A stretch of 63,938 bases of DNA from a virus (taxonomy: Duplodnaviria > Caudoviricetes). The DNA is taken from positions 1 to 63,938 of IMG/VR virus record IMGVR_UViG_3300023174_000167, one strand, 5' to 3'. Position 1 is the first letter of the stretch. Each line of letters starts with the position of its first letter. A model generated the notes under the pieces. The model was not told the origin of the DNA. It saw only the letters and a program-made list of their open reading frames with translations, and ran no database searches. Shown here piece by piece: positions 1 to 63,938 of this stretch. Both the position numbers and the translations under genes were made by a program.

Positions 1-1
1 T

Positions 2-157
2 AGACAAACTTTAGAATGTTATGGATACCAACCATTCCCATCTTGGACGGTAAATTTAGAAACTGCACAATATGAGCCACCTACCCCATATCCAACAGAT
101 GGTAAAATGTATATGTGGGTTGAAGATGATCTTAATTGGCAAGAAATAACTAATTAA
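2..157 (+). CDS. 3' end of hypothetical protein (partial), similar to C-terminus of 21159..21473
   Basis: Open frame from window edge ending ...QPFPSWTVNLETAQYEPPTPYPTDGKMYMWVEDDLNWQEITN*; compare YPSW...WEAPVPMPTEEGKGFEWNEETESW. Confidence 0.7.
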   Translation, partial: RQTLECYGYQPFPSWTVNLETAQYEPPTPYPTDGKMYMWVEDDLNWQEITN

Positions 158-212
158 AGTCAAGCCGAAAAATGGTTTTAAGTTCGGCGGCGACAGGAGG
201 TTCCAAACCTCA

Positions 213-404
213 CTATGAGCCTACAGGCTCACTATCGGTCTCCATACTCTTGTCCCACAATATTAGACACTTAATACACTGGATACCTGGATCTCTCATA
301 TACCAAGTATGCTTACATTCTTTTGCCACTGGCACACCAAATACTACCGTCTTGCATGGTTTGATGGGTTTCCCAAAATATGGGATCTTTGTGCGATAGC
401 TCAC
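213..404 (-). CDS. small Cys-containing hypothetical protein
   Basis: ORF track; lies downstream of a sigma70-like promoter at about 435-464 (-). Confidence 0.45.
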   Translation of the reverse strand: MSYRTKIPYFGKPIKPCKTVVFGVPVAKECKHTWYMRDPGIQCIKCLILWDKSMETDSEPVGS

Positions 405-740
405 ACTTTGGACATTCGTTCTTTTTCATATATCTATTGTCTCAAAAAGTTCGGGGCAAGTCAAATGGATGAATCTTCAACCTGATCTACTGCATCATCT
501 ATAGTCCTAGTAAGAACAACGATGTCTCGTAATATGCCACCTTGGTCCCAGGATGAAGGTTTGATAATTTCACACATTATTTAAGGTTTGTGGCTATGGC
601 GATGCAGTTTGAACATGGGGTTTGGTCAGGCGATCCATGTTGGCATCTTTCAATAATCTCTATAGCCTGTTGTTTGCTCATAAAACCATTATATCAAATT
701 TTGCGGGGGATTGCAAAGAAATGCATAACTACCAGTATAA

Positions 741-1076
741 CTAACTATGTTCCCTACATACAGGCATAGGTATAGTCTCAACAGGGGTAAAGGTATATCT
801 GATTTTACGACATATGTAGCATAGGTTCCATGCGTCTTTGTTGTTTGTTCTGATTTCCTGGAAATACTCTTTTTGGAGTATGCGCTTTTCATCCTTGGAT
901 AAAGACATATATCTTATATACGCCAGAGATATACGGTTAGAGCGGTTATGAGGATATATGGGATAGCGCAGAAAGCCAGAAAATCCATTATTTATCCCCT
1001 GGAATTTTACACCTAGGACATGCCTTTGTAGGGTTTGGAGTCTCATAGGATACATCAAAAATTGATCCACAATCAA
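741..1076 (-). CDS. hypothetical protein with C-terminal CxxC
   Basis: 111-aa ORF, no recognisable family. Confidence 0.5.
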   Translation of the reverse strand: MIVDQFLMYPMRLQTLQRHVLGVKFQGINNGFSGFLRYPIYPHNRSNRISLAYIRYMSLSKDEKRILQKEYFQEIRTNNKDAWNLCYICRKIRYTFTPVETIPMPVCREHS

Positions 1077-1118
1077 AGCATAATACTTTAGGCATAGGCT
1101 AATTGTAACATGAAATTA

Positions 1119-1167
1119 GGCCATATATGTAGGTTGAAATGTCTGGTTTGGTACTATATGTAGTGGT
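1119..1167. promoter_or_regulatory. tandem NrdR-box-like pair
   Basis: TATATGTAG cores at 1124 and 1155, 31 bp apart; second copy GTACTATATGTAGTGG resembles the NrdR consensus as recalled. Confidence 0.55.
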
Positions 1168-1172
1168 TTGAT

Positions 1173-1186
1173 AGCATAAAAATGCA
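1173..1186. promoter_or_regulatory. ArgR (ARG box)-like palindrome
   Basis: AGCATAAAAATGCA versus TGCATAWWWATGCA. Confidence 0.45.
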
Positions 1187-1223
1187 ATTTAAATGTTACT
1201 GATATTTTTTAGATTTACCTTGG

Positions 1224-1250
1224 AGTGGAGGAAAGTGGAGGATAGTGGGG
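1224..1250 (+). promoter_or_regulatory. MraZ-binding-like triple direct repeat
   Basis: GTGGAG-GAAA-GTGGAG-GATA-GTGGGG; GTGG at 1225, 1235, 1245 (10-bp period). Confidence 0.6.
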
Positions 1251-1289
1251 ATTTATGCACTTTAGACAGATGGGGCCGTAATGTCTAAC

Positions 1290-1810
1290 GGGCCAAACCT
1301 CCTATCACAAAACCTTTCTATTGTCAAACCTTCCAAACCTCATATCTCAATAGCGGATTATACCCCCAAACCTCCTATTTGTCAAACCTTTATAGCCCTA
1401 AAAACCCTATACAAAAACCTGCAAAATGTCCAATAAATATATAAAAAACCAGCAAAAAATATAAAAAGGTTTGGATATTTCTACAAAATCCAGCAAAAAG
1501 GTTTGAAGGTTTTATATGTACTTATACTGGGGGGATTTGGATACTCTTTCGTAATCCCCGCCTAGGAATGTATGCTTATCCTGGCAGTCACGCTGGGGCG
1601 GGGGATTTAAAATGATCTTCGTAATACCATTATAGCTATAGGTAATAGACAAACCATATAGTCTGGTTTGAAGGTTTGACGGATATAAGGTTTGGTGATA
1701 TACTTCCAGCGATTTTTTACAAACCATCGTAATGTTTTTTAGAAAAAATAGTTCAGGGGTTTCATATATGTCCTCGTAATGTCATTTGGGGAAAATAAGG
1801 TTTGTACGAT
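1290..1810. repeat. non-coding region of convergently arranged CAAACCT/AGGTTTG repeats
   Basis: CAAACCT at 1294, 1325, 1334, 1367, 1383; AGGTTTG at 1467, 1499, 1672, 1688, 1798; A-rich centre at about 1430-1466. Confidence 0.7.
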
Positions 1811-1875
1811 ATGTCCGATTTGTCTGAATGCCCGGCCCCACCCCCGCCGCAGCTTTGCGGCAAGGGGCAGAGTAA

Positions 1876-2145
1876 TTATTCTAGGCTAGATGAAGCGGCA
1901 AAAATATCATCAAGTGTTTCAAACCCTGTATCCTCAATACCCAATGACTCAATAAATAGCAACCAAGTTTCCTCAATGTAACCTTCGCCCTCAGTTGTTA
2001 TAGAAGCCATACCTTCGCTGGCTAAATGTGCAAGTGGCAAACCTAAATCGTTATACTCAATGAAATCTACAAACTCTGGGTCGCTACCATAGTTTACAAA
2101 TAGATCAGCAAGTATTTCTACCTTATTTAAAAATGTCGTTTCCAT
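1876..2145 (-). CDS. acidic hypothetical protein
   Basis: 89-aa ORF, overlaps upstream gene in operon. Confidence 0.75.
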   Translation of the reverse strand: METTFLNKVEILADLFVNYGSDPEFVDFIEYNDLGLPLAHLASEGMASITTEGEGYIEETWLLFIESLGIEDTGFETLDDIFAASSSLE

Positions 2146-2362
2146 AGTATTTTCCGATCTCTCTGTATTCTGCTACTTGTTTATTATACTCTGTTGCTTC
2201 TAATACTTCCAATGCCCTCGCATAAACGACATACGAGTTGCTGGTGGCTAGATATTTCCCAACTGCCTCTAGGTCAAGGCTATAGTCAGAAAGTAATTTG
2301 CCAATGGTTAGGGCAACCTTTTCTTCCTTGCTTGCTCGTAGGTGAAAGCCTCTAGTCATCAT
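2123..2362 (-). CDS. hypothetical protein
   Basis: ORF with GGAGAG SD and TTGCCC-N17-TAGAAT promoter just upstream. Confidence 0.75.
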   Translation of the reverse strand: MMTRGFHLRASKEEKVALTIGKLLSDYSLDLEAVGKYLATSNSYVVYARALEVLEATEYNKQVAEYREIGKYYGNDIFK

Positions 2363-2444
2363 CTCTCCATTCTATCAAAAAGTATGAGCGGGGGCAAGTC
2401 CCACCACAAGCCTGCCCCCGTCTCATTATGTGGACAAGGTGACC

Positions 2445-2795
2445 CTACCCCATCACACGCTCAGCCAAAAACGCTTGCTCAATAAATTCTGGGAATGGTG
2501 TGCTATCTACCTTTTTGTCAACTAGATCAATAATCACAGTCTCATCGTATAGTTCAGGGTTTGCTGGATTGATAGCAAATAGGCCATAACTATACTCATC
2601 CAAGATACTCTCAGACATAAGATAACTAATCATCATACGGGTACCGTAGGACGTATCATTAATATTAAGCCTTGGCGCAGCATGATTAATAGCATTAGCA
2701 ATGTCATACTGCCAAGTGGTGGCCCCCCAGTGAGAGTACAAAACCACGGCGTGGTCTGTTCCGTCCTTGAATACAAAGTTAATACGTGCTCCCAT
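2445..2795 (-). CDS. conserved phage hypothetical protein (LYSHWG motif)
   Basis: 116-aa ORF with AAGGAG SD. Confidence 0.8.
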   Translation of the reverse strand: MGARINFVFKDGTDHAVVLYSHWGATTWQYDIANAINHAAPRLNINDTSYGTRMMISYLMSESILDEYSYGLFAINPANPELYDETVIIDLVDKKVDSTPFPEFIEQAFLAERVMG

Positions 2796-2861
2796 TATTC
2801 TTGCTCCTTTAGGTCGTAGGTGTTTTCTTCAATTGTATCAAATAAAGAGGGCTGGGTCCAA

Positions 2862-3035
2862 TTACTCATCGCAGCCACAGCATTCAACGCAGATCTGCTC
2901 ATCGTCCTTGTAGCAGTTAGGACACATGTACTCTGACATATTCATCTCAGGGTCAAGGCACCATTCACAGATAGCAACTGATAGTTCGGCAAACGTATAT
3001 TCGCTTAGATGTTTCTCTAATCTATTAGTTTTCAT
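2862..3035 (-). CDS. small Cys-rich (Zn-binding-like) protein
   Basis: CEWC, CPNC, CVECC motifs; start moved to MKTNRLE. Confidence 0.65.
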   Translation of the reverse strand: MKTNRLEKHLSEYTFAELSVAICEWCLDPEMNMSEYMCPNCYKDDEQICVECCGCDE

Positions 3036-10908: not shown

Positions 10909-11305
10909 TCTAAGGTAAGGTTTAGTTCTGAGTCTAACACATCTGCAAAGTCATGGTCAAGTTGGCAAGACCAGCAACGCAATTCATTTACATCTACTTC
11001 ATTTTCGTTACAATCTAAGCAAGTATAAATATCCATTAGTAGTTTTCCCCCATATTCTTTTCTGCTTCCCACTCTTGACGGTGTTCTGCACACATAGTCG
11101 CAGGGCGAGATGATATTAAGTCTATCCCATATTCCTGAGCATAGCAAATATTGCAAGCCAGCCCTTGATCTGCAAGTACTTCCATTAAATTACCCATTTA
11201 GGCATTTCCTTTCTGATTAACTAAGTTAATCCTATCGTACTCCACCGACATTTTTGGGATCTTGGGGGGGGTTTTGCGGTGTGATCTTAACCACACTTAA
11301 TAGCC

Positions 11306-11325
11306 TGTGGATAACCTGTGGACGA
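11306..11325. promoter_or_regulatory. DnaA box plus degenerate second box
   Basis: TGTGGATAA-CC-TGTGGACGA; the first is the reverse complement of TTATCCACA. Confidence 0.65.
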
Positions 11326-12204: not shown

Positions 12205-12547
12205 TAGTAGCACTTCCTTTTCTTTTCTTTATATAACTATTTTACCAAACATACCTGATAAATACAAATCCAAATTCGGACATATCAGACAATTTAAATG
12301 TGAATTGCGTCACATCTTTTTGCTATTTATTTAATTGTATAGTAGCAATACTAGCAAACATAAACCAAAAAGTCAACACGACACGCCGTAAATCAGGGGA
12401 ATTTTTTATGTGATCTTAACCACACGACACGCCCGACAGCGCCGGGCCGCCTTTCACTCTTTTGAAAATAAATAAATAGAAAATAAAAAACTAATTAGTG
12501 AAAAAAATAAAAGTGCATTACCACTTACAAAAAAAGTTTGATAAAAG

Positions 12548-13220: not shown

Positions 13221-13420
13221 TTTGTTTTCCTTTCTTTGTTGATAACCTTTATCAACTTTCCTTATACTAGAAAGTATAACAGGGGGGTACGACATCTTGA
13301 GGGGTATAAAACGGTCAATTCGGACATTTGGTACTGTGATCTAGCCCACATTTTTTAGAATAGGGGAATTAAGGCTCTGAGCAGGGCTTTTGTAGAGGGG
13401 GGTAAATGTGATACGTATCA

Positions 13421-13440
13421 TGTGGATAACCTGTGGATAA
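13421..13440. promoter_or_regulatory. two perfect tandem DnaA boxes
   Basis: TGTGGATAA-CC-TGTGGATAA. Confidence 0.75.
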
Positions 13441-13753: not shown

Positions 13754-14029
13754 TTTATTAACCTTTCTAGTTTAAGGACTTTCCTTAACTTTCTAATACT
13801 GTAAGGATACATGACCAAGCCCCAAAAGTCAAGCCCAAACACGGCGTGTCTAGTGTGATTTACCCCACATGGCCCGGGTGCTCTCAGGAAACTCTCAGGA
13901 TAGATGTGGCAAGGATCACAAAAATAAATTCCGACACGCCCGAGAATAGGGGTCAAAATGTCAGTGGGGGGTGTTATACTTTCCATATAGAAAGTTAGAG
14001 AAGGTCTCTAAATAAGAAAGGGTCAAAAA

Positions 14030-14152
14030 ATGACTAACAGAATATACGAACAAGAAGTCTCTCCAGTATTTGCAGAGCATATGGGATATGTCTCATGTGA
14101 GAAGTGTGGGGGATACCCTATCGCTTCTAGCCCATGCGTTATGTGTAAGTGA
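14030..14152 (+). CDS. 40-aa CxxC-x9-CxxC protein, first gene of rightward arm
   Basis: MTNRIYEQEVSPVFAEHMGYVSCEKCGGYPIASSPCVMCK; AGAAAGG SD. Confidence 0.8.
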   Translation: MTNRIYEQEVSPVFAEHMGYVSCEKCGGYPIASSPCVMCK

Positions 14153-14266
14153 TCTAAATCACACACAGCCTACGGCGTGTCGCCTTGTATTTTAGCGGGG
14201 GATCTGCTAAGATTACATCTATAAAATTAAATAAGAATTAAAACTACTAAAGAAAGGTGGTCTAAA

Positions 14267-37988: not shown

Positions 37989-38675
37989 ATGGTAAATATA
38001 GTCTTTACAAATACTAGTAATTTTGATGATATTGAAAAACCACAACCTGCAAGTAAATTTGTACCAGAGTGGTATAAAAATGCAGATTCATATATAGGTG
38101 GAAAGAAAAGACCAGATGGACAAGGTGGAGCAACTTCTACCATTAAACGCTGTATGCCAGTATTTGATGCAATAAATGCAGGATATATTATAGTATCCCC
38201 TGCAGATATTTATGTTTCAATTAAAGAAGGAATTCAATTCTTTGAATGGTCATCTCTTGATTTAATTAAATTTCATCCTATTGAGCAAGCCTCAAACCAT
38301 CCATTACGTAAACCACACGCCTATCCTAAATGGACAAATCCTTGGGCCATTAAGACACCTAAAGGATATTCAACAATGTTTGTTCAACCAATGCATAGAG
38401 ATTCAGTTTTTACTATTCTGCCTGGAATTGTGGATACTGATGAATACTATGCCCCAGTGAATTTTCCATTTGTTATTAATGACCCAGAATTTGAAGGGCT
38501 TATTCCAAAAGGAACTCCTATTGCACAGGTAATCCCATTCAAAAGAGACTCCTGGAAAATTGAATATGGCAAAGAAAAAGATTTAATAGAGCAAAATAAA
38601 ATATCTACAAAACTTCAAACAAGATTTTTTGATAGATATAAAACTATGTTTAGACAAAATAAAGAATATAAATAA
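37989..38675 (+). CDS. DUF6065-related hypothetical protein
   Basis: PEWYK, TIKRCMPVFDA, IKTPKGYS, PGIVDTD, KGTPIAQVIPFKR. Confidence 0.75.
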   Translation: MVNIVFTNTSNFDDIEKPQPASKFVPEWYKNADSYIGGKKRPDGQGGATSTIKRCMPVFDAINAGYIIVSPADIYVSIKEGIQFFEWSSLDLIKFHPIEQASNHPLRKPHAYPKWTNPWAIKTPKGYSTMFVQPMHRDSVFTILPGIVDTDEYYAPVNFPFVINDPEFEGLIPKGTPIAQVIPFKRDSWKIEYGKEKDLIEQNKISTKLQTRFFDRYKTMFRQNKEYK

Positions 38676-38833
38676 AGTTTATGCGGTACTTTTGTTTGTA
38701 TAAAGTACTAACTATAAAGTAAAGATTTACACGTTCTTATTGAGCGTGTTTTTCTTTTTAAAGTGTGTTATACTTAGGTACTACTTCAGAAATCATGAAG
38801 TACTCAATTAATTTTACTTTGAAAGGTACATAA

Positions 38834-40867
38834 ATGTCAGAAAGCGTTTTTTCATTCCGTCTATCAGAAGATTTTGTAAATAAATATTCTACAGTTCCAG
38901 CTCCATTTGGTTTTTCAGATGCAGGCTCCAACTCGTTAGGAGAGATTACATTTATTCGCACATATTCTCGTGTTAAAGAAGACGGAACAAAGGAACGCTG
39001 GCATGAAGTATGCCGTCGTGTAATTGAGGGTATGTACTCAGTTCAGAAGAATCATGCTAAAGATAATCGTCTACCATGGAATGATAATAAAGCTCAAAAG
39101 TCTGCTCAGGAAGCTTTTCAAAGAATGTTTGAATTAAAGTGGACTCCACCAGGCCGTGGTCTATGGGCATTTGGAACACCTATGACTATGGAAAAGCGCA
39201 ACTCTGCTTCCCTTCAAAACTGTGCAATGGTTTCTACCCGTGATATTGATCGTAATGATCCAGGTGCATTATTTGCTTGGGTAATGGATGCATTAATGTT
39301 GGGCATTGGTGTTGGTTTTGATACCCTTGGACAAGATAAACAAATGCCTATTTATGCTCCAACCGAACCAGCATCTATTTATGAAATTCCAGATACTCGT
39401 GAAGGATGGGTGGAATCGGTTCGTCTTTTGATTAATTCTTTCCTTCGCCAGAACCAACCTATCCAAGAGTTTAACTATGATCTGATCCGTCCTCTAGGAG
39501 CACCTATTAAAGGCTTTGGTGGGGTAGCCAGCGGTCCAGCACCACTTATTGATCTACACACACGCATCCGCAATGTAATCGGTTCTAGAGCGGGAGAAAC
39601 ACTTGATAGTCGTGCAATTGTAGATATTGTAAATCTTATTGGTACTTGTGTAGTTTCAGGAAATGTTCGCCGTTCTGCTACCCTTGCACTTGGCGTTCCA
39701 CAGGATGAAGATTTTATTAATCTTAAAAATCCAGAGGTATTTGCAGAAAGAAATTCATATGATCCTAAGAAACCAGGTTGGGCATGGATGAGTAATAACT
39801 CTATTGCTGCTGAAGTAGGAACAAAGTATGAAGACTATGTTGATTTAATTGCAGATAATGGAGAGCCAGGTTTTATATGGCTTGACGTTGCTCGTAATTA
39901 TGGTCGCCTTGCTGATGCACCAGATTATAAAGATTCTAGAATTATGGGATTTAATCCATGTGCAGAACAACCACTTGAGTCATATGAACTATGTACTCTT
40001 GTAGAAGTTCATCTTAATCGTCATGAGTCTAAAGAAGATTTCTTAAAGACATTAAAGTTTGCATATTTGTATGGTAAGACTGTTACTCTTATGCCAACAC
40101 ATTGGCAACAGACAAACGGTATTATGCAACGTAATCGCCGTATTGGTACATCACTTACAGGTATTGCTGCATTTGCTGATGAACATGGTCTTCCAACTAC
40201 CCGTGAATGGATGGATGAAGGATATAACACAATCCGTAAATATGATCACCAGTATTCAGAATGGCTATGTGTTCGTGAATCAGTTCGTGTAACAACAGTT
40301 AAGCCATCAGGATCTGTGTCGCTTCTTTCTGGGGCTACTCCTGGAGTTCACTGGGGACCTGGTGGAGAATTCTATCTCCGTGCTATTCGCTTTGGCGATC
40401 AAGATCCAATGCTTCATTTGTTTAAAGCAGCGGGATATAAAGTTGAACCAGATCTAGTATCAGCAAATACACAGGTAGTATATTTCCCAGTAGCATCAGG
40501 ACACAAGCGTTCTGAAAAGCAGGTAAGCCTATTTGAAAAGATTGGTTTGGCAGCAACTGCTCAGAAGTATTGGTCAGATAATGGTGTTTCTGTAACACTC
40601 TCATTTGATAAGGAAGAAGAAAAGAAATTCGTTGCTCCAGCACTAAATATGTATGAGGGTCAGCTAAAGGCAGTTTCATTCCTTCCAATGGGAAATAAAA
40701 CCTACCCACAACAGCCATATACAGAAATCACAAGAGAAGAATATAACGCATATGTTGGAACAATTGGCAAAATTGACTGGTCTGCTATCTATGATGGCAA
40801 AGATAATCTTGATGCTGAGTCTGAGAAATATTGTTCAACCGATGCCTGTGAAATCAAGTTGTACTAA
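38834..40867 (+). CDS. nrdJ: class II (B12-dependent) monomeric ribonucleotide reductase
   Basis: PPGRG, NC, GFNPCAEQPL, TTVKPSG, C-terminal CSTDAC. Confidence 0.93.
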   Translation: MSESVFSFRLSEDFVNKYSTVPAPFGFSDAGSNSLGEITFIRTYSRVKEDGTKERWHEVCRRVIEGMYSVQKNHAKDNRLPWNDNKAQKSAQEAFQRMFELKWTPPGRGLWAFGTPMTMEKRNSASLQNCAMVSTRDIDRNDPGALFAWVMDALMLGIGVGFDTLGQDKQMPIYAPTEPASIYEIPDTREGWVESVRLLINSFLRQNQPIQEFNYDLIRPLGAPIKGFGGVASGPAPLIDLHTRIRNVIGSRAGETLDSRAIVDIVNLIGTCVVSGNVRRSATLALGVPQDEDFINLKNPEVFAERNSYDPKKPGWAWMSNNSIAAEVGTKYEDYVDLIADNGEPGFIWLDVARNYGRLADAPDYKDSRIMGFNPCAEQPLESYELCTLVEVHLNRHESKEDFLKTLKFAYLYGKTVTLMPTHWQQTNGIMQRNRRIGTSLTGIAAFADEHGLPTTREWMDEGYNTIRKYDHQYSEWLCVRESVRVTTVKPSGSVSLLSGATPGVHWGPGGEFYLRAIRFGDQDPMLHLFKAAGYKVEPDLVSANTQVVYFPVASGHKRSEKQVSLFEKIGLAATAQKYWSDNGVSVTLSFDKEEEKKFVAPALNMYEGQLKAVSFLPMGNKTYPQQPYTEITREEYNAYVGTIGKIDWSAIYDGKDNLDAESEKYCSTDACEIKLY

Positions 40868-61293: not shown

Positions 61294-63938
61294 ATGAAAT
61301 CAAAATATAAAAGTGCTAAATCGGTTGCTAAAAATCAAACAGTACCAATAAGTGCTGATGATCCAAGAGTAGCATGGGATAAAATAGGAAGAACAAAGGC
61401 ACGTATTGGTGCAGAAATTGACATTGTTGGCATTGATGGAAAATCATTAATTTCTGGAGGAAAAACACCAAACAATCCAACAGGTGGAACAGACCCTAAT
61501 ACAAATACAAATGAAAAACCATTAACAACTGTTAAAACAGATGGAACAGTTCAATATGTAGATCTGTATAATATTAATCCTACAGAGCCAACAAACGTTG
61601 AAGCAGTTTGGTCTGGGGATGACTTAATTATTTCTTTTGACTGGGATTATTCTAATGCACAAAATTCTTTAGTCTCAGAGTTTATTATTAAATTAACTAG
61701 TAATGGAGTAACAAAACAAAATCAATACGGATTATTTAAACCTAATAAGACACAAACAGCCCAAACAATAACAATTACAAAAGCCATAAATACTCAGATG
61801 TTTAATATTTTTACTCCACAAATTAGTGCAATTTGTGTATTTTCTATTGATCCATTCTATAATGTTAGTGATTCGGTTTGTGCAGCCACCGTTCCAACTT
61901 ATGTTTTAGATTTGCCAGTTCCAACAATTACAGTTACTGCAATAACAAATGGTTATAGTGTTGCATATACAACACCAACAAGTACATCATATGATGCAAT
62001 CCAGATTGTTGAGTATGAATCAACATCTTCAACAGAGCCAACTGGAGTAACCTATAGTGCTACATACTTTGATACAATAAATCCTGCTACTGTTATTACT
62101 TCAAATACAAATGCTAGATGGGTTAAAGCAAGATTTTCTTCAGGCGGTGGAATTTTTACGGATTATTCTGCTGCTCAAAAGGTCACACCAACAAGCCCAG
62201 TTTCTGTTGACCTAACTCCTCCAAATGAAGTAACGCAAACCTCAGCAGTTTGGTCGGGGGATAATATTATAGTAAGTTATAAATTACCAGCACAGGATCA
62301 AGGTGTAAGAGTTCAGATACAATTAACTGCACCTAATAACCTTGTAGGATATTTTTATAGATTCCCTGATGGTAGCGGAAGAGATCAAACAACAACAATT
62401 ACTAAAAAAGATTTATTTGATCAATTTGGAGAACATTATAGTTCATTCTCTGGAATATTAAGAAGCATAGATGCAAATGATAATAGAAGTTCTGGAGTGT
62501 CATTTTCTGTACCAACAAGAACAAATCCATTATCAGGGATAACCCCAACTTTTACAACTGTAGCTTTATCTAATGCTTACTCAATTACTTTTACTTTGCC
62601 AACAGGAGCCGTTGCTGCACAAATTTATGCTAAGCACACTACCTGGTCTGGAAATCCTACAGATGATACATATCTTGTTTATTCAGGAATAAGTCCAGCG
62701 GTTATTTTAGATACAAACTATACAACTGTATACATTAAAGTTCGTTATTATGACGATTTTGGAAATACATCTAATTTTTCTGCACAAGCAACAGTTACAC
62801 CACTAAACCCTGGAGAAATAACTTCATTTGAAAATCCAATTTCATTTGGTACAAATGCTGTAATATATGCTGGAAATAGTGCAACTTCAGGAACAAGAAC
62901 TTTATTTAAGACTGGAGGCATTTTTGCATATGATGCAACTAATACTTCTCCATCAACACAAATAGTATCCAATGCATCTGCTGGAACTCCAACCTTTATA
63001 ACTACACAAGCACAGATAGCTGACTGGCAAATAACAAGTACAAAAATTGAAAATACTTTATCGGGAACTCCAACAAAATATACAGGATTATCTGCAACAG
63101 GAACATATTCATTTTGGGCGGGTAGTGATACATCAGGTGGAGACTCATCAGCAAACTTTACAGTAACTCCATTAGGAGCAGTAACAGCAAGAAATATTTC
63201 TATTGTAGGAAATGGTAGTGGCTCAAGCAATCTTATTAGTGCAGGTGGAGTATTTACAGTAAAAAATGATGGAACTGTAACGGCGACTTCGGCAACAATA
63301 ACAGGAGCAATTACAGCATCTTCTGGATCATTTACTGGAAATGTATCAATAGGATCTTCAGGTTCTTTATATTCTGGAACCTTATCGGGGGGTAATTTAT
63401 CTGGAGCTGGTTATATTTTAAATACCACTGGATTAACCTTTAATTCTTCTACAACAAATGGAATTACAACAATTAATGGTTCAACAGGTATTTTTACCAC
63501 AAAATCTGCTTCTATAGGTGGCTGGAATGTAGATACTTCAAAAATTTCAAAAGTAAATACTGGTCAAGGAAAAATTGTACTTGATTCAACAGCAGGTCAA
63601 ATATATATAACTGGAGATTCAGTTGAAAACTATTATGCTGGAATAAATGCAGGATCAGGAACAACAGATACGGTTTTTTGGGCGGGAACCAATTCAACAC
63701 CAAGCAATACTGCTAATGCATTTAGAGTTACAATGGGTGGAAAACTTTATGCATCAGATGTAGATATAACTGGAAAAGTAAGTGCAACAGATGGATACAT
63801 AGGAACATCTACAAATGGTTGGACAATTAGTTCTGAAAGAATTGTAGCAACTGGTACTGGAAGCATTCAAGTTGGTAATTTTAAAATACAAAGCCAATCA
63901 ACAACAGACTTTGCCATTGTTGATGTCACAGATACACA
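61294..63938 (+). CDS. large tail fibre/host-specificity protein, truncated at window end (not in ORF track)
   Basis: Frame from MKSKYKS appears open to the end; Ser/Thr-rich, Ig/FN3-like segments, then FWAG...FTVT fibre repeats. Confidence 0.85.
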   Translation, partial: MKSKYKSAKSVAKNQTVPISADDPRVAWDKIGRTKARIGAEIDIVGIDGKSLISGGKTPNNPTGGTDPNTNTNEKPLTTVKTDGTVQYVDLYNINPTEPTNVEAVWSGDDLIISFDWDYSNAQNSLVSEFIIKLTSNGVTKQNQYGLFKPNKTQTAQTITITKAINTQMFNIFTPQISAICVFSIDPFYNVSDSVCAATVPTYVLDLPVPTITVTAITNGYSVAYTTPTSTSYDAIQIVEYESTSSTEPTGVTYSATYFDTINPATVITSNTNARWVKARFSSGGGIFTDYSAAQKVTPTSPVSVDLTPPNEVTQTSAVWSGDNIIVSYKLPAQDQGVRVQIQLTAPNNLVGYFYRFPDGSGRDQTTTITKKDLFDQFGEHYSSFSGILRSIDANDNRSSGVSFSVPTRTNPLSGITPTFTTVALSNAYSITFTLPTGAVAAQIYAKHTTWSGNPTDDTYLVYSGISPAVILDTNYTTVYIKVRYYDDFGNTSNFSAQATVTPLNPGEITSFENPISFGTNAVIYAGNSATSGTRTLFKTGGIFAYDATNTSPSTQIVSNASAGTPTFITTQAQIADWQITSTKIENTLSGTPTKYTGLSATGTYSFWAGSDTSGGDSSANFTVTPLGAVTARNISIVGNGSGSSNLISAGGVFTVKNDGTVTATSATITGAITASSGSFTGNVSIGSSGSLYSGTLSGGNLSGAGYILNTTGLTFNSSTTNGITTINGSTGIFTTKSASIGGWNVDTSKISKVNTGQGKIVLDSTAGQIYITGDSVENYYAGINAGSGTTDTVFWAGTNSTPSNTANAFRVTMGGKLYASDVDITGKVSATDGYIGTSTNGWTISSERIVATGTGSIQVGNFKIQSQSTTDFAIVDVTDT

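Follow-up and report, generated by a model that had tools for sequence, protein, structure and literature searches.

Predicted Operators for the Host Repressors NrdR and MraZ in a Conserved Early-Region Hub of Uncultured Lake Phages

Two predicted operators for host repressors, one of NrdR type and one of MraZ type, are built into a control hub in the early region of an uncultured lake phage whose family encodes neither NrdR nor MraZ. We favor the explanation that host regulators would control phage promoters through these predicted operators, and give it about an even chance. NrdR is a repressor that senses DNA building blocks, and MraZ is a repressor that controls cell division. To our knowledge, both are nearly universal in bacteria and their known regulons are very small, comprising only the RNR genes and the division operon, respectively.

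The analyzed sequence (hereafter the window) is the whole 63,938-nt viral record IMGVR_UViG_3300023174_000167. The stretch under study (1085–1260) forms the downstream, left edge of the ~780-bp hub, which lies in a leftward early gene block. A first-pass annotation had read this stretch as a 170-bp cassette of stacked regulator sites. All of the strings it named are present where it placed them, and its reading is partly supported by our comparisons: two of its five site calls (NrdR-like and MraZ-like) appear to hold, and the other three (ArgR, DtxR/MntR, and TGTTAC) fail. The coordinates of the features discussed below are collected in table 1.

Table 1. Features of the Control Hub and Related Elements in the Window
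Feature	Position	Strand	Description
First ORF downstream of hub	988..1095	-	35 aa, weak zinc-ribbon match, ATG at 1095
Control hub	1096..1875	-	780 bp without ORF of at least 90 aa, between ORF 1876-2145 and ORF 988-1095
NrdR-like box, variant	1120..1135		A6, A8, T9, T11 kept; C-G distance 9 bp; A/T 8/9
Linker between NrdR-like boxes	1136..1150		15 bp; 14/15 bases the same in relative L029
NrdR-like box, full	1151..1166		6/6 conserved positions; A/T 7/8 between C and G
Spacer ("ARG-like" palindrome)	1171..1189	-	homologous to ACATTTTTATGCTAnCAAACC, which trails the DnaA boxes in relatives
ATCAGTAACAT element	1193..1203	-	includes -10-like TAAnAT hexamer (TAACAT, 1198-1193)
-10-like TAGATT	1210..1215	+	9 nt upstream of first GTGGAG box
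MraZ-binding-repeat-like array	1225..1250	+	GTGGAG-GAAA-GTGGAG-GATA-GTGGGG; 4-nt spacers, 10-bp period
Promoter-like TAGACA-17-TAAAGT	1259..1287	-	includes conserved GACATTACG motif
Sigma-70-type consensus promoter TTGACA-17-TATAAT	1357..1385	-	faces small genes; nearly invariant in 48 relatives
Class II RNR gene	38834..40867		

A Conserved Control Hub in the Early Region

Via two neighboring proteins, 136 related loci were gathered from viral contigs; 54 nonredundant relatives were compared, and 48 sequences were aligned. From window 1190 to ~1880, DNA identity was 68–83% in 69 related loci, whereas the proteins next to the hub are only 42–75% identical in relatives. Most alignments of the 69 loci end at window 1189–1193, indicating that 1190–1260 lies within the conserved block and that 1096–1189 is variable. 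The supposed 170-bp cassette is thus not one unit, as it joins part of the conserved block to a variable slot.

On the minus strand, the block carries the following elements: the consensus promoter, many AGGTTTG repeats, GACATTACG, a CTCCAC array (the MraZ-like array read on this strand), an A-rich tract, and ATCAGTAA. The last element is invariant in the 48-sequence alignment and is present in 51 of the 54 relatives. The ATTACG of the GACATTACG motif is found in all 54 relatives, and the -10 hexamer of the promoter-like site that includes this motif is poorly conserved (10/48).

The hub is also rich in other repeats. ATTACGR occurs five times on the minus strand within 505 nt (1276–1780), and the copy beside the MraZ-like array is kept in 54/54 relatives; small GC stems seem, by eye, to flank ATTACGA. 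Of the 24 CAAACCT/AGGTTTG heptamers in the window, 13 fall within 150–1900, and these reverse orientation about an A/T-rich segment near 1440. The segments 1359–1390 and 1671–1702 form a 32-nt inverted repeat with 81% complementarity, whose arms carry outward promoter-like sites, TTGACA-17-TATAAT leftward and TTGACG-17-TATACT rightward; in both, AGGTTTG repeats cover the -35 and spacer. A structured-RNA reading of the hub was dropped after RNAalifold predicted 0 pairs on the 48 aligned hubs. Rfam gave no match on window 1–3000 at E up to 1, blastn of window 1–2400 against a phage collection gave no match, and no HTH, AbrB, MraZ, or WhiB domain was detected among the window ORFs scanned with Pfam.

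One complete relative, a 124,540-bp contig (L127 + L129), ends in an exact direct terminal repeat of 8,517 bp. Its hub (L127 5310–6100) lies inside this repeat and is therefore present in two copies per genome. In the L127 hub, CCAAAT-type repeats replace CCAAACC. The apparent terminal repeat of another relative proved to be merely a 127-bp assembly overlap.

The closest described case is the untranslated repeat region, with DnaA-box pairs, in the first-step-transfer DNA of phage T5 (Davison, bioRxiv 10.1101/866236). Like that region, the hub is gene-free, repeat-rich, and located among small early genes; it is more conserved than the flanking genes and, in one complete relative, lies in a long terminal repeat. 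DnaA boxes are paired 3 bp apart in T5 as in the relatives of the window phage. Unlike T5, the window lacks DnaA boxes at this place, and the accessible part of that preprint reports no NrdR or MraZ sites for T5.

The MraZ-like Array

MraZ-binding repeats of Bacillus subtilis are described as three GTGG[A/T]G boxes placed 4 nt apart, and this triple occurs just once in the B. subtilis genome (bioRxiv 10.1101/2022.02.09.479790). The window array fits this formula (at least three direct GTGG[A/T]G or GTG[G/T] boxes with a 10-bp period); it comprises two exact boxes and GTGGGG, and AGTGG recurs at 1224, 1234, and 1244. It is the sole array of GTGG-type triple boxes in the whole window. At the homologous site, the exact published triple was found in 19 of the 54 relatives and the form with two exact boxes and a GTGG in 40 of 54, and no further copy was detected off-site in these relatives (547 kb, both strands). 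The GTGG cores of the array are conserved while the spacers vary among relatives, a pattern for which the first-pass annotation had proposed to look. The exact NrdR-like 9-mer TATATGTAG occurs in none of the 54 relatives.

A search of bacterial genomes with the exact triple yielded at least 121 loci, of which 80 had flanks; the first downstream ORF could be picked in 77. Among the bacterial matches listed, this ORF encodes a Pfam MraZ protein in 44 of 77 cases. Several of the non-MraZ picks share the repeat with a true match and are probably wrong-frame ORF picks, and the remaining non-MraZ cases among the matches listed are mostly intragenic tandem repeats. The phage-type pattern with the GATA spacer was present in 15 genomic loci: eight mraZ promoters, five phage-like contigs, and two Prevotella/Segatella loci. 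The eight mraZ promoters, all with a Pfam MraZ protein (8/8), come from six or more phyla. The mraZ operator of a member of Lachnospiraceae equals the window array over 25 nt, spacers included.

The exact triple is likewise common among viral contigs, with at least 120 loci. Among the 80 with flanks, 33 carry both hub signatures and 26 more carry one. In six more distant low-GC viral contigs (L284, L304, L280, L283, L295, and L341), the exact triple follows directly after a terminator-like hairpin that ends a same-strand gene.

The array also resembles bacterial mraZ promoters in its position 9 nt downstream of a same-strand -10-like hexamer. A plus-strand TAnnnT hexamer lies 7–11 nt upstream in 22 of 48 arrays, against a background of 14%, and several different hexamers occupy this position. 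Inspection by eye found a -10-like hexamer 7–11 nt upstream of the repeats in seven of the eight bacterial mraZ promoters. We rejected a minus-strand promoter directly upstream of the array, the -10 of which is kept in just 10 of 48 arrays.

The three direct boxes of GTGG[A/T]G type with a 10-bp period are shared with the repeats of mra/dcw promoters (10.1101/2022.02.09.479790), including those of Mycoplasma genitalium (PMC12957436). In contrast to these repeats, the window array has GTGGGG as its third box and is followed by no mraZ or dcw gene; it does not lie at or just downstream of an mraZ/dcw promoter, as no mraZ was found in the window or in five relatives. It is also inverted with respect to the neighboring genes, between facing promoter-like elements, and its orientation is opposite to the direction of the early genes in all relatives. 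A literature search found no paper joining MraZ, MraZ binding, and bacteriophage.

The NrdR-like Box Pair

In a published analysis of NrdR operators in RNR promoters, including those of Streptomyces coelicolor and Escherichia coli, the operator consists of two partially palindromic 16-bp boxes, 15–16 bp apart, with six conserved positions (C4, A6, A8, T9, T11, and G13), of which C4 and G13 are critical. A C–G distance of 9 bp instead of 8 is tolerated in one box only, and at least 63% A/T is required between C and G (PMC13584703). The window sequence resembles these operators in all of these respects, including the 15-bp linker, the A/T-rich centers, and a single box with the tolerated 9-bp distance. 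The 9-mer TATATGTAG occurs at window 1124 and 1155, and the 31-bp spacing noted in the first-pass annotation corresponds to a box pair that agrees with the published sequence rules in positions, linker, and A/T content, one box being in the variant form. This variant box lacks C4 and keeps five of the six conserved positions. Nowhere in the window are two full boxes paired, so the candidate window operator rests on the tolerated variant.

Two statistical tests were applied to the window. With a loose rule (6/6 positions in one box and at least 5/6 in its partner), two pairs were found against 0.51 expected, and at least one pair arose in 40% of simulations; this result is not significant. With the strict rule of the published analysis, two pairs were found against 0.05 expected, and at least one arose in 5% of 400 simulations; this strict test is post hoc, as the variant class was added after the window had been seen. 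The pairs of the strict rule start at 1120 and 13287, and both are intergenic. The one at 13287–13334 consists of one full and one variant box with a 16-bp linker and lies near a DnaA-box pair; A/T makes up 5/8 and 5/9 of the positions between C and G, a borderline value.

Across the family, 24 NrdR pairs were found in 19 of the 136 loci, representing a minority feature, and every full-box pair is located in the hub. Counting start-to-start offsets in 100 nonredundant loci plus the window (1.107 Mb), six full-box pairs lie at offset 31 and five at offset 32; at the other 62 offsets, the average is 0.24 and the highest count 3. The full-box counts in relatives are free of the post hoc variant class, and they represent about five site classes in related sequences, which are not independent. 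In the relative L029, the homologous place is occupied by a full pair that shares the linker, and 11 of the 12 differences between its boxes and those of the window (counted by eye) fall at noncritical positions.

In several lineages, NrdR boxes flank GACATTACG, which then includes a -35-like TGGACA spaced 17 nt from a -10-like TATAGT inside the second NrdR box; the motif thus serves as the linker of an NrdR box pair in some relatives. L065 is one example of this arrangement. An NrdR core downstream of the conserved block was present in only 3 of the 54 relatives, and no NrdR pair was found in the 80 further viral loci chosen for the exact MraZ triple (63.6 kb). Both window boxes resemble a local ATAT..GGTTTG repeat family and overlap CAAACC/GGTTTG repeats. 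A reading of the NrdR-like cores as mere degenerate iterons was revised in light of the variant rule and the scan of relatives.

Unlike bacterial NrdR operators, the window pair sits in a leader that precedes small phage genes, 37 kb from the phage class II RNR gene, in a phage family without an NrdR gene of its own. As the first-pass annotation had observed, there is no NrdR pair upstream of the RNR gene; the RNR promoter region searched (38300–38900) contains no box pair. A literature search on NrdR and phages found no report of such sites, as judged by titles and abstract openings.

An Exchangeable Slot for Regulator Sites

In 36 of the 54 relatives, two DnaA boxes, 3 bp apart, follow directly after the ATCAGTAA element. 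The junction 1189/1190 of the window corresponds to the place of this pair in relatives. No DnaA box of the TTATCCACA type (9-mer) was found in window 1085–1260, and the nearest one with a single mismatch (1063–1071) is inside an ORF. After the minus-strand TAAnAT hexamer, most relatives thus have DnaA boxes, and the window and L029 have the NrdR pair. As most relatives hold paired DnaA boxes at this place, we regard it as an exchangeable slot; 1096–1189 resembles an operator slot that lies downstream of a transcription start.

The remaining site calls in this part of the stretch were not upheld. The ARG-box-like palindrome has four mismatches to the consensus, a score equaled or bettered by 321 window sites, and is best attributed to chance; it is a single site, not a pair of 18-bp palindromes as in ARG boxes, and it is homologous to a nonpalindromic spacer in relatives. 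A DtxR/MntR-like string had been proposed near the left end, but its best ungapped match has 8 mismatches in 19 positions to the iron-box consensus, which points to chance as well. The string spans the ATG of ORF 988–1095 on the minus strand and was found, at two or fewer mismatches, in none of the 54 relatives. TGTTAC at 1194 also appears to be a chance or spacer sequence, given 19 copies of TGTTAC and 30 of GTAACA in the window. It is part of ATCAGTAAC, the completing C of which is present in only 12 of the 54 relatives.

Further regulator-like sites were noticed in spacers of the early block (11281–11325, 12408–12432, 13421–13440, 13850–13940, and 14145–14175). These include perfect DnaA boxes at 11306 and, as a pair, at 13421 and 13432, as well as TGTGA-N6-CCACA-type palindromes and repeated GACACGCC words.

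The Phage and Its Host

The window record is linear and 59% complete according to CheckV. It contains a siphovirus-type structural module (portal, protease, capsid, and a 1,739-aa tape measure), and its capsid protein is closest to those of Streptomyces phages of 121–134 kb (~44% identity). The minus-strand gene run extends from ~17.7 kb down to position 213. ORF 61294–63936, which exits at the right end, shares its phase with ORF 2–157, which enters at the left end. In the region next to the hub, the nearest relative showed no homology to the right-end gene.

Five relatives are 92–100% complete. NrdR, MraZ, and AbrB/SpoVT were each found in none of these five, and the searches worked in control genomes. 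WhiB was found in all five and, among 14 control genomes, in Corynebacterium only. The presence of WhiB in the relatives indicates that, on gene content, the host of the window phage is an actinobacterium. The phage itself is a siphovirus of roughly 100–125 kb of freshwater Actinomycetota, uncultured and from a lake. Host assignment from MAG labels was rejected, as five phage-like contigs were binned with five different taxa: the hub-bearing contigs L262, L266, L268, L270, and L273 are labeled as Methylococcus, Chitinophagaceae, Beijerinckiaceae, Acidimicrobiaceae, and Bacteroidetes MAGs and probably represent phage contigs that ended up in bacterial bins.

Proposed Action of Host Repressors on Phage Promoters

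The explanation we favor assigns each predicted operator to a promoter-like element. The three MraZ-like boxes and the plus-strand -10-like hexamer match bacterial mraZ promoters in both order and orientation. The predicted NrdR operator lies in the leader between TAACAT and the ATG of the first small gene. Host MraZ and dATP/ATP-loaded NrdR would bind the hub and stop transcription. Given the -10-to-array geometry on the plus strand, MraZ would most simply shut a rightward promoter, one that would fire against the strong leftward consensus promoter. With rising dATP, NrdR would halt the leftward transcription that enters the small genes, and expression of these genes would then track the division and nucleotide state of the host. 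The matches themselves, their conservation and spacing, and the lack of phage NrdR and MraZ are observed; that the repressors bind, that the promoters are active, and which way and with what sign they are controlled is inferred.

A different use of the same sites had been preferred in the first-pass annotation, namely a decoy role. The operators might mainly sequester host NrdR and MraZ (and DnaA in relatives) while the phage DNA is replicating, which would de-repress host nrd genes and disturb the control of division and replication. The distance of the operators from the phage RNR gene, with no NrdR pair upstream of it, is consistent with such titration, as are the lack of phage-encoded NrdR and MraZ and the two hub copies per genome that the 8,517-bp terminal repeat provides in one complete relative. 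The T5 preprint likewise argues that the paired DnaA boxes of a comparable untranslated region have a nontranscriptional role (10.1101/866236). However, there are just one or two operators per regulator per genome, and the sites occupy fixed positions relative to promoter-like elements, as seen in the L065 -35/-10 arrangement with its -10 in box 2 and in the -10-to-array distance; the use of one slot by sites of different regulators also fits promoter wiring. We therefore consider titration as the main role unlikely, and control of the phage's own transcription is favored by the fixed relation of the sites to promoter-like elements. Titration and promoter control could act together.

Two further explanations dispense with one or both host repressors, and we hold each to be less likely again than titration. 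The repeats may be sites for a phage-encoded or other protein, either as origin iterons or as a T5-like injection or packaging signal, with the likeness to NrdR and MraZ sites being coincidental or historical. The density of other repeats in the hub (the AGGTTTG/CAAACCT heptamers, the five minus-strand ATTACGR copies, the inverted repeats, and the A-rich tract) would suit this idea. In the window, the array and the ATCAGTAA element each occur once, as for a unique cis site, and most early ORFs are without a family match and could hide a binder. It fits poorly with the identity to the Lachnospiraceae mraZ operator, which extends to the spacers, with the conservation of cores among variable spacers, and with a 31/32-bp spacing peak that is specific to the NrdR architecture. 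The same peak bears on the other explanation, in which the MraZ-like array alone is functional and the window NrdR-like pair arose by chance from the local repeat family. A chance origin would agree with the nonsignificant loose test, the box without C4, the lack of the 9-mer in all 54 relatives, and the overlap with CAAACC/GGTTTG repeats. Against it stand the strict test, which expects only 0.05 pairs per window, and the full pair of L029 at the same place and with the same linker, in addition to the family-wide peak.

Significance

Control of phage promoters by host regulators remains our preferred reading, and short DNA fragments together with purified repressors would provide a direct and cheap bench test of the predicted operators. 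From the sites found, the phage probably reads or soaks up host NrdR and MraZ. A broader proposal, which we put forward more tentatively than that of promoter control itself, is that, in this large family of lake actinophages, one conserved early hub combines exchangeable operators for host NrdR, MraZ, and DnaA, none of them phage-encoded, and that the sites could also titrate these regulators. Early genes would then be timed by the dNTP pool, division state, and replication state of the host, for example, by NrdR shut-off when dATP rises. If this is true, NrdR and MraZ operators are conserved and correctly spaced in the early region of abundant uncultured lake phages, and they would represent a new way for a phage to read or disturb the nucleotide and division state of its host.
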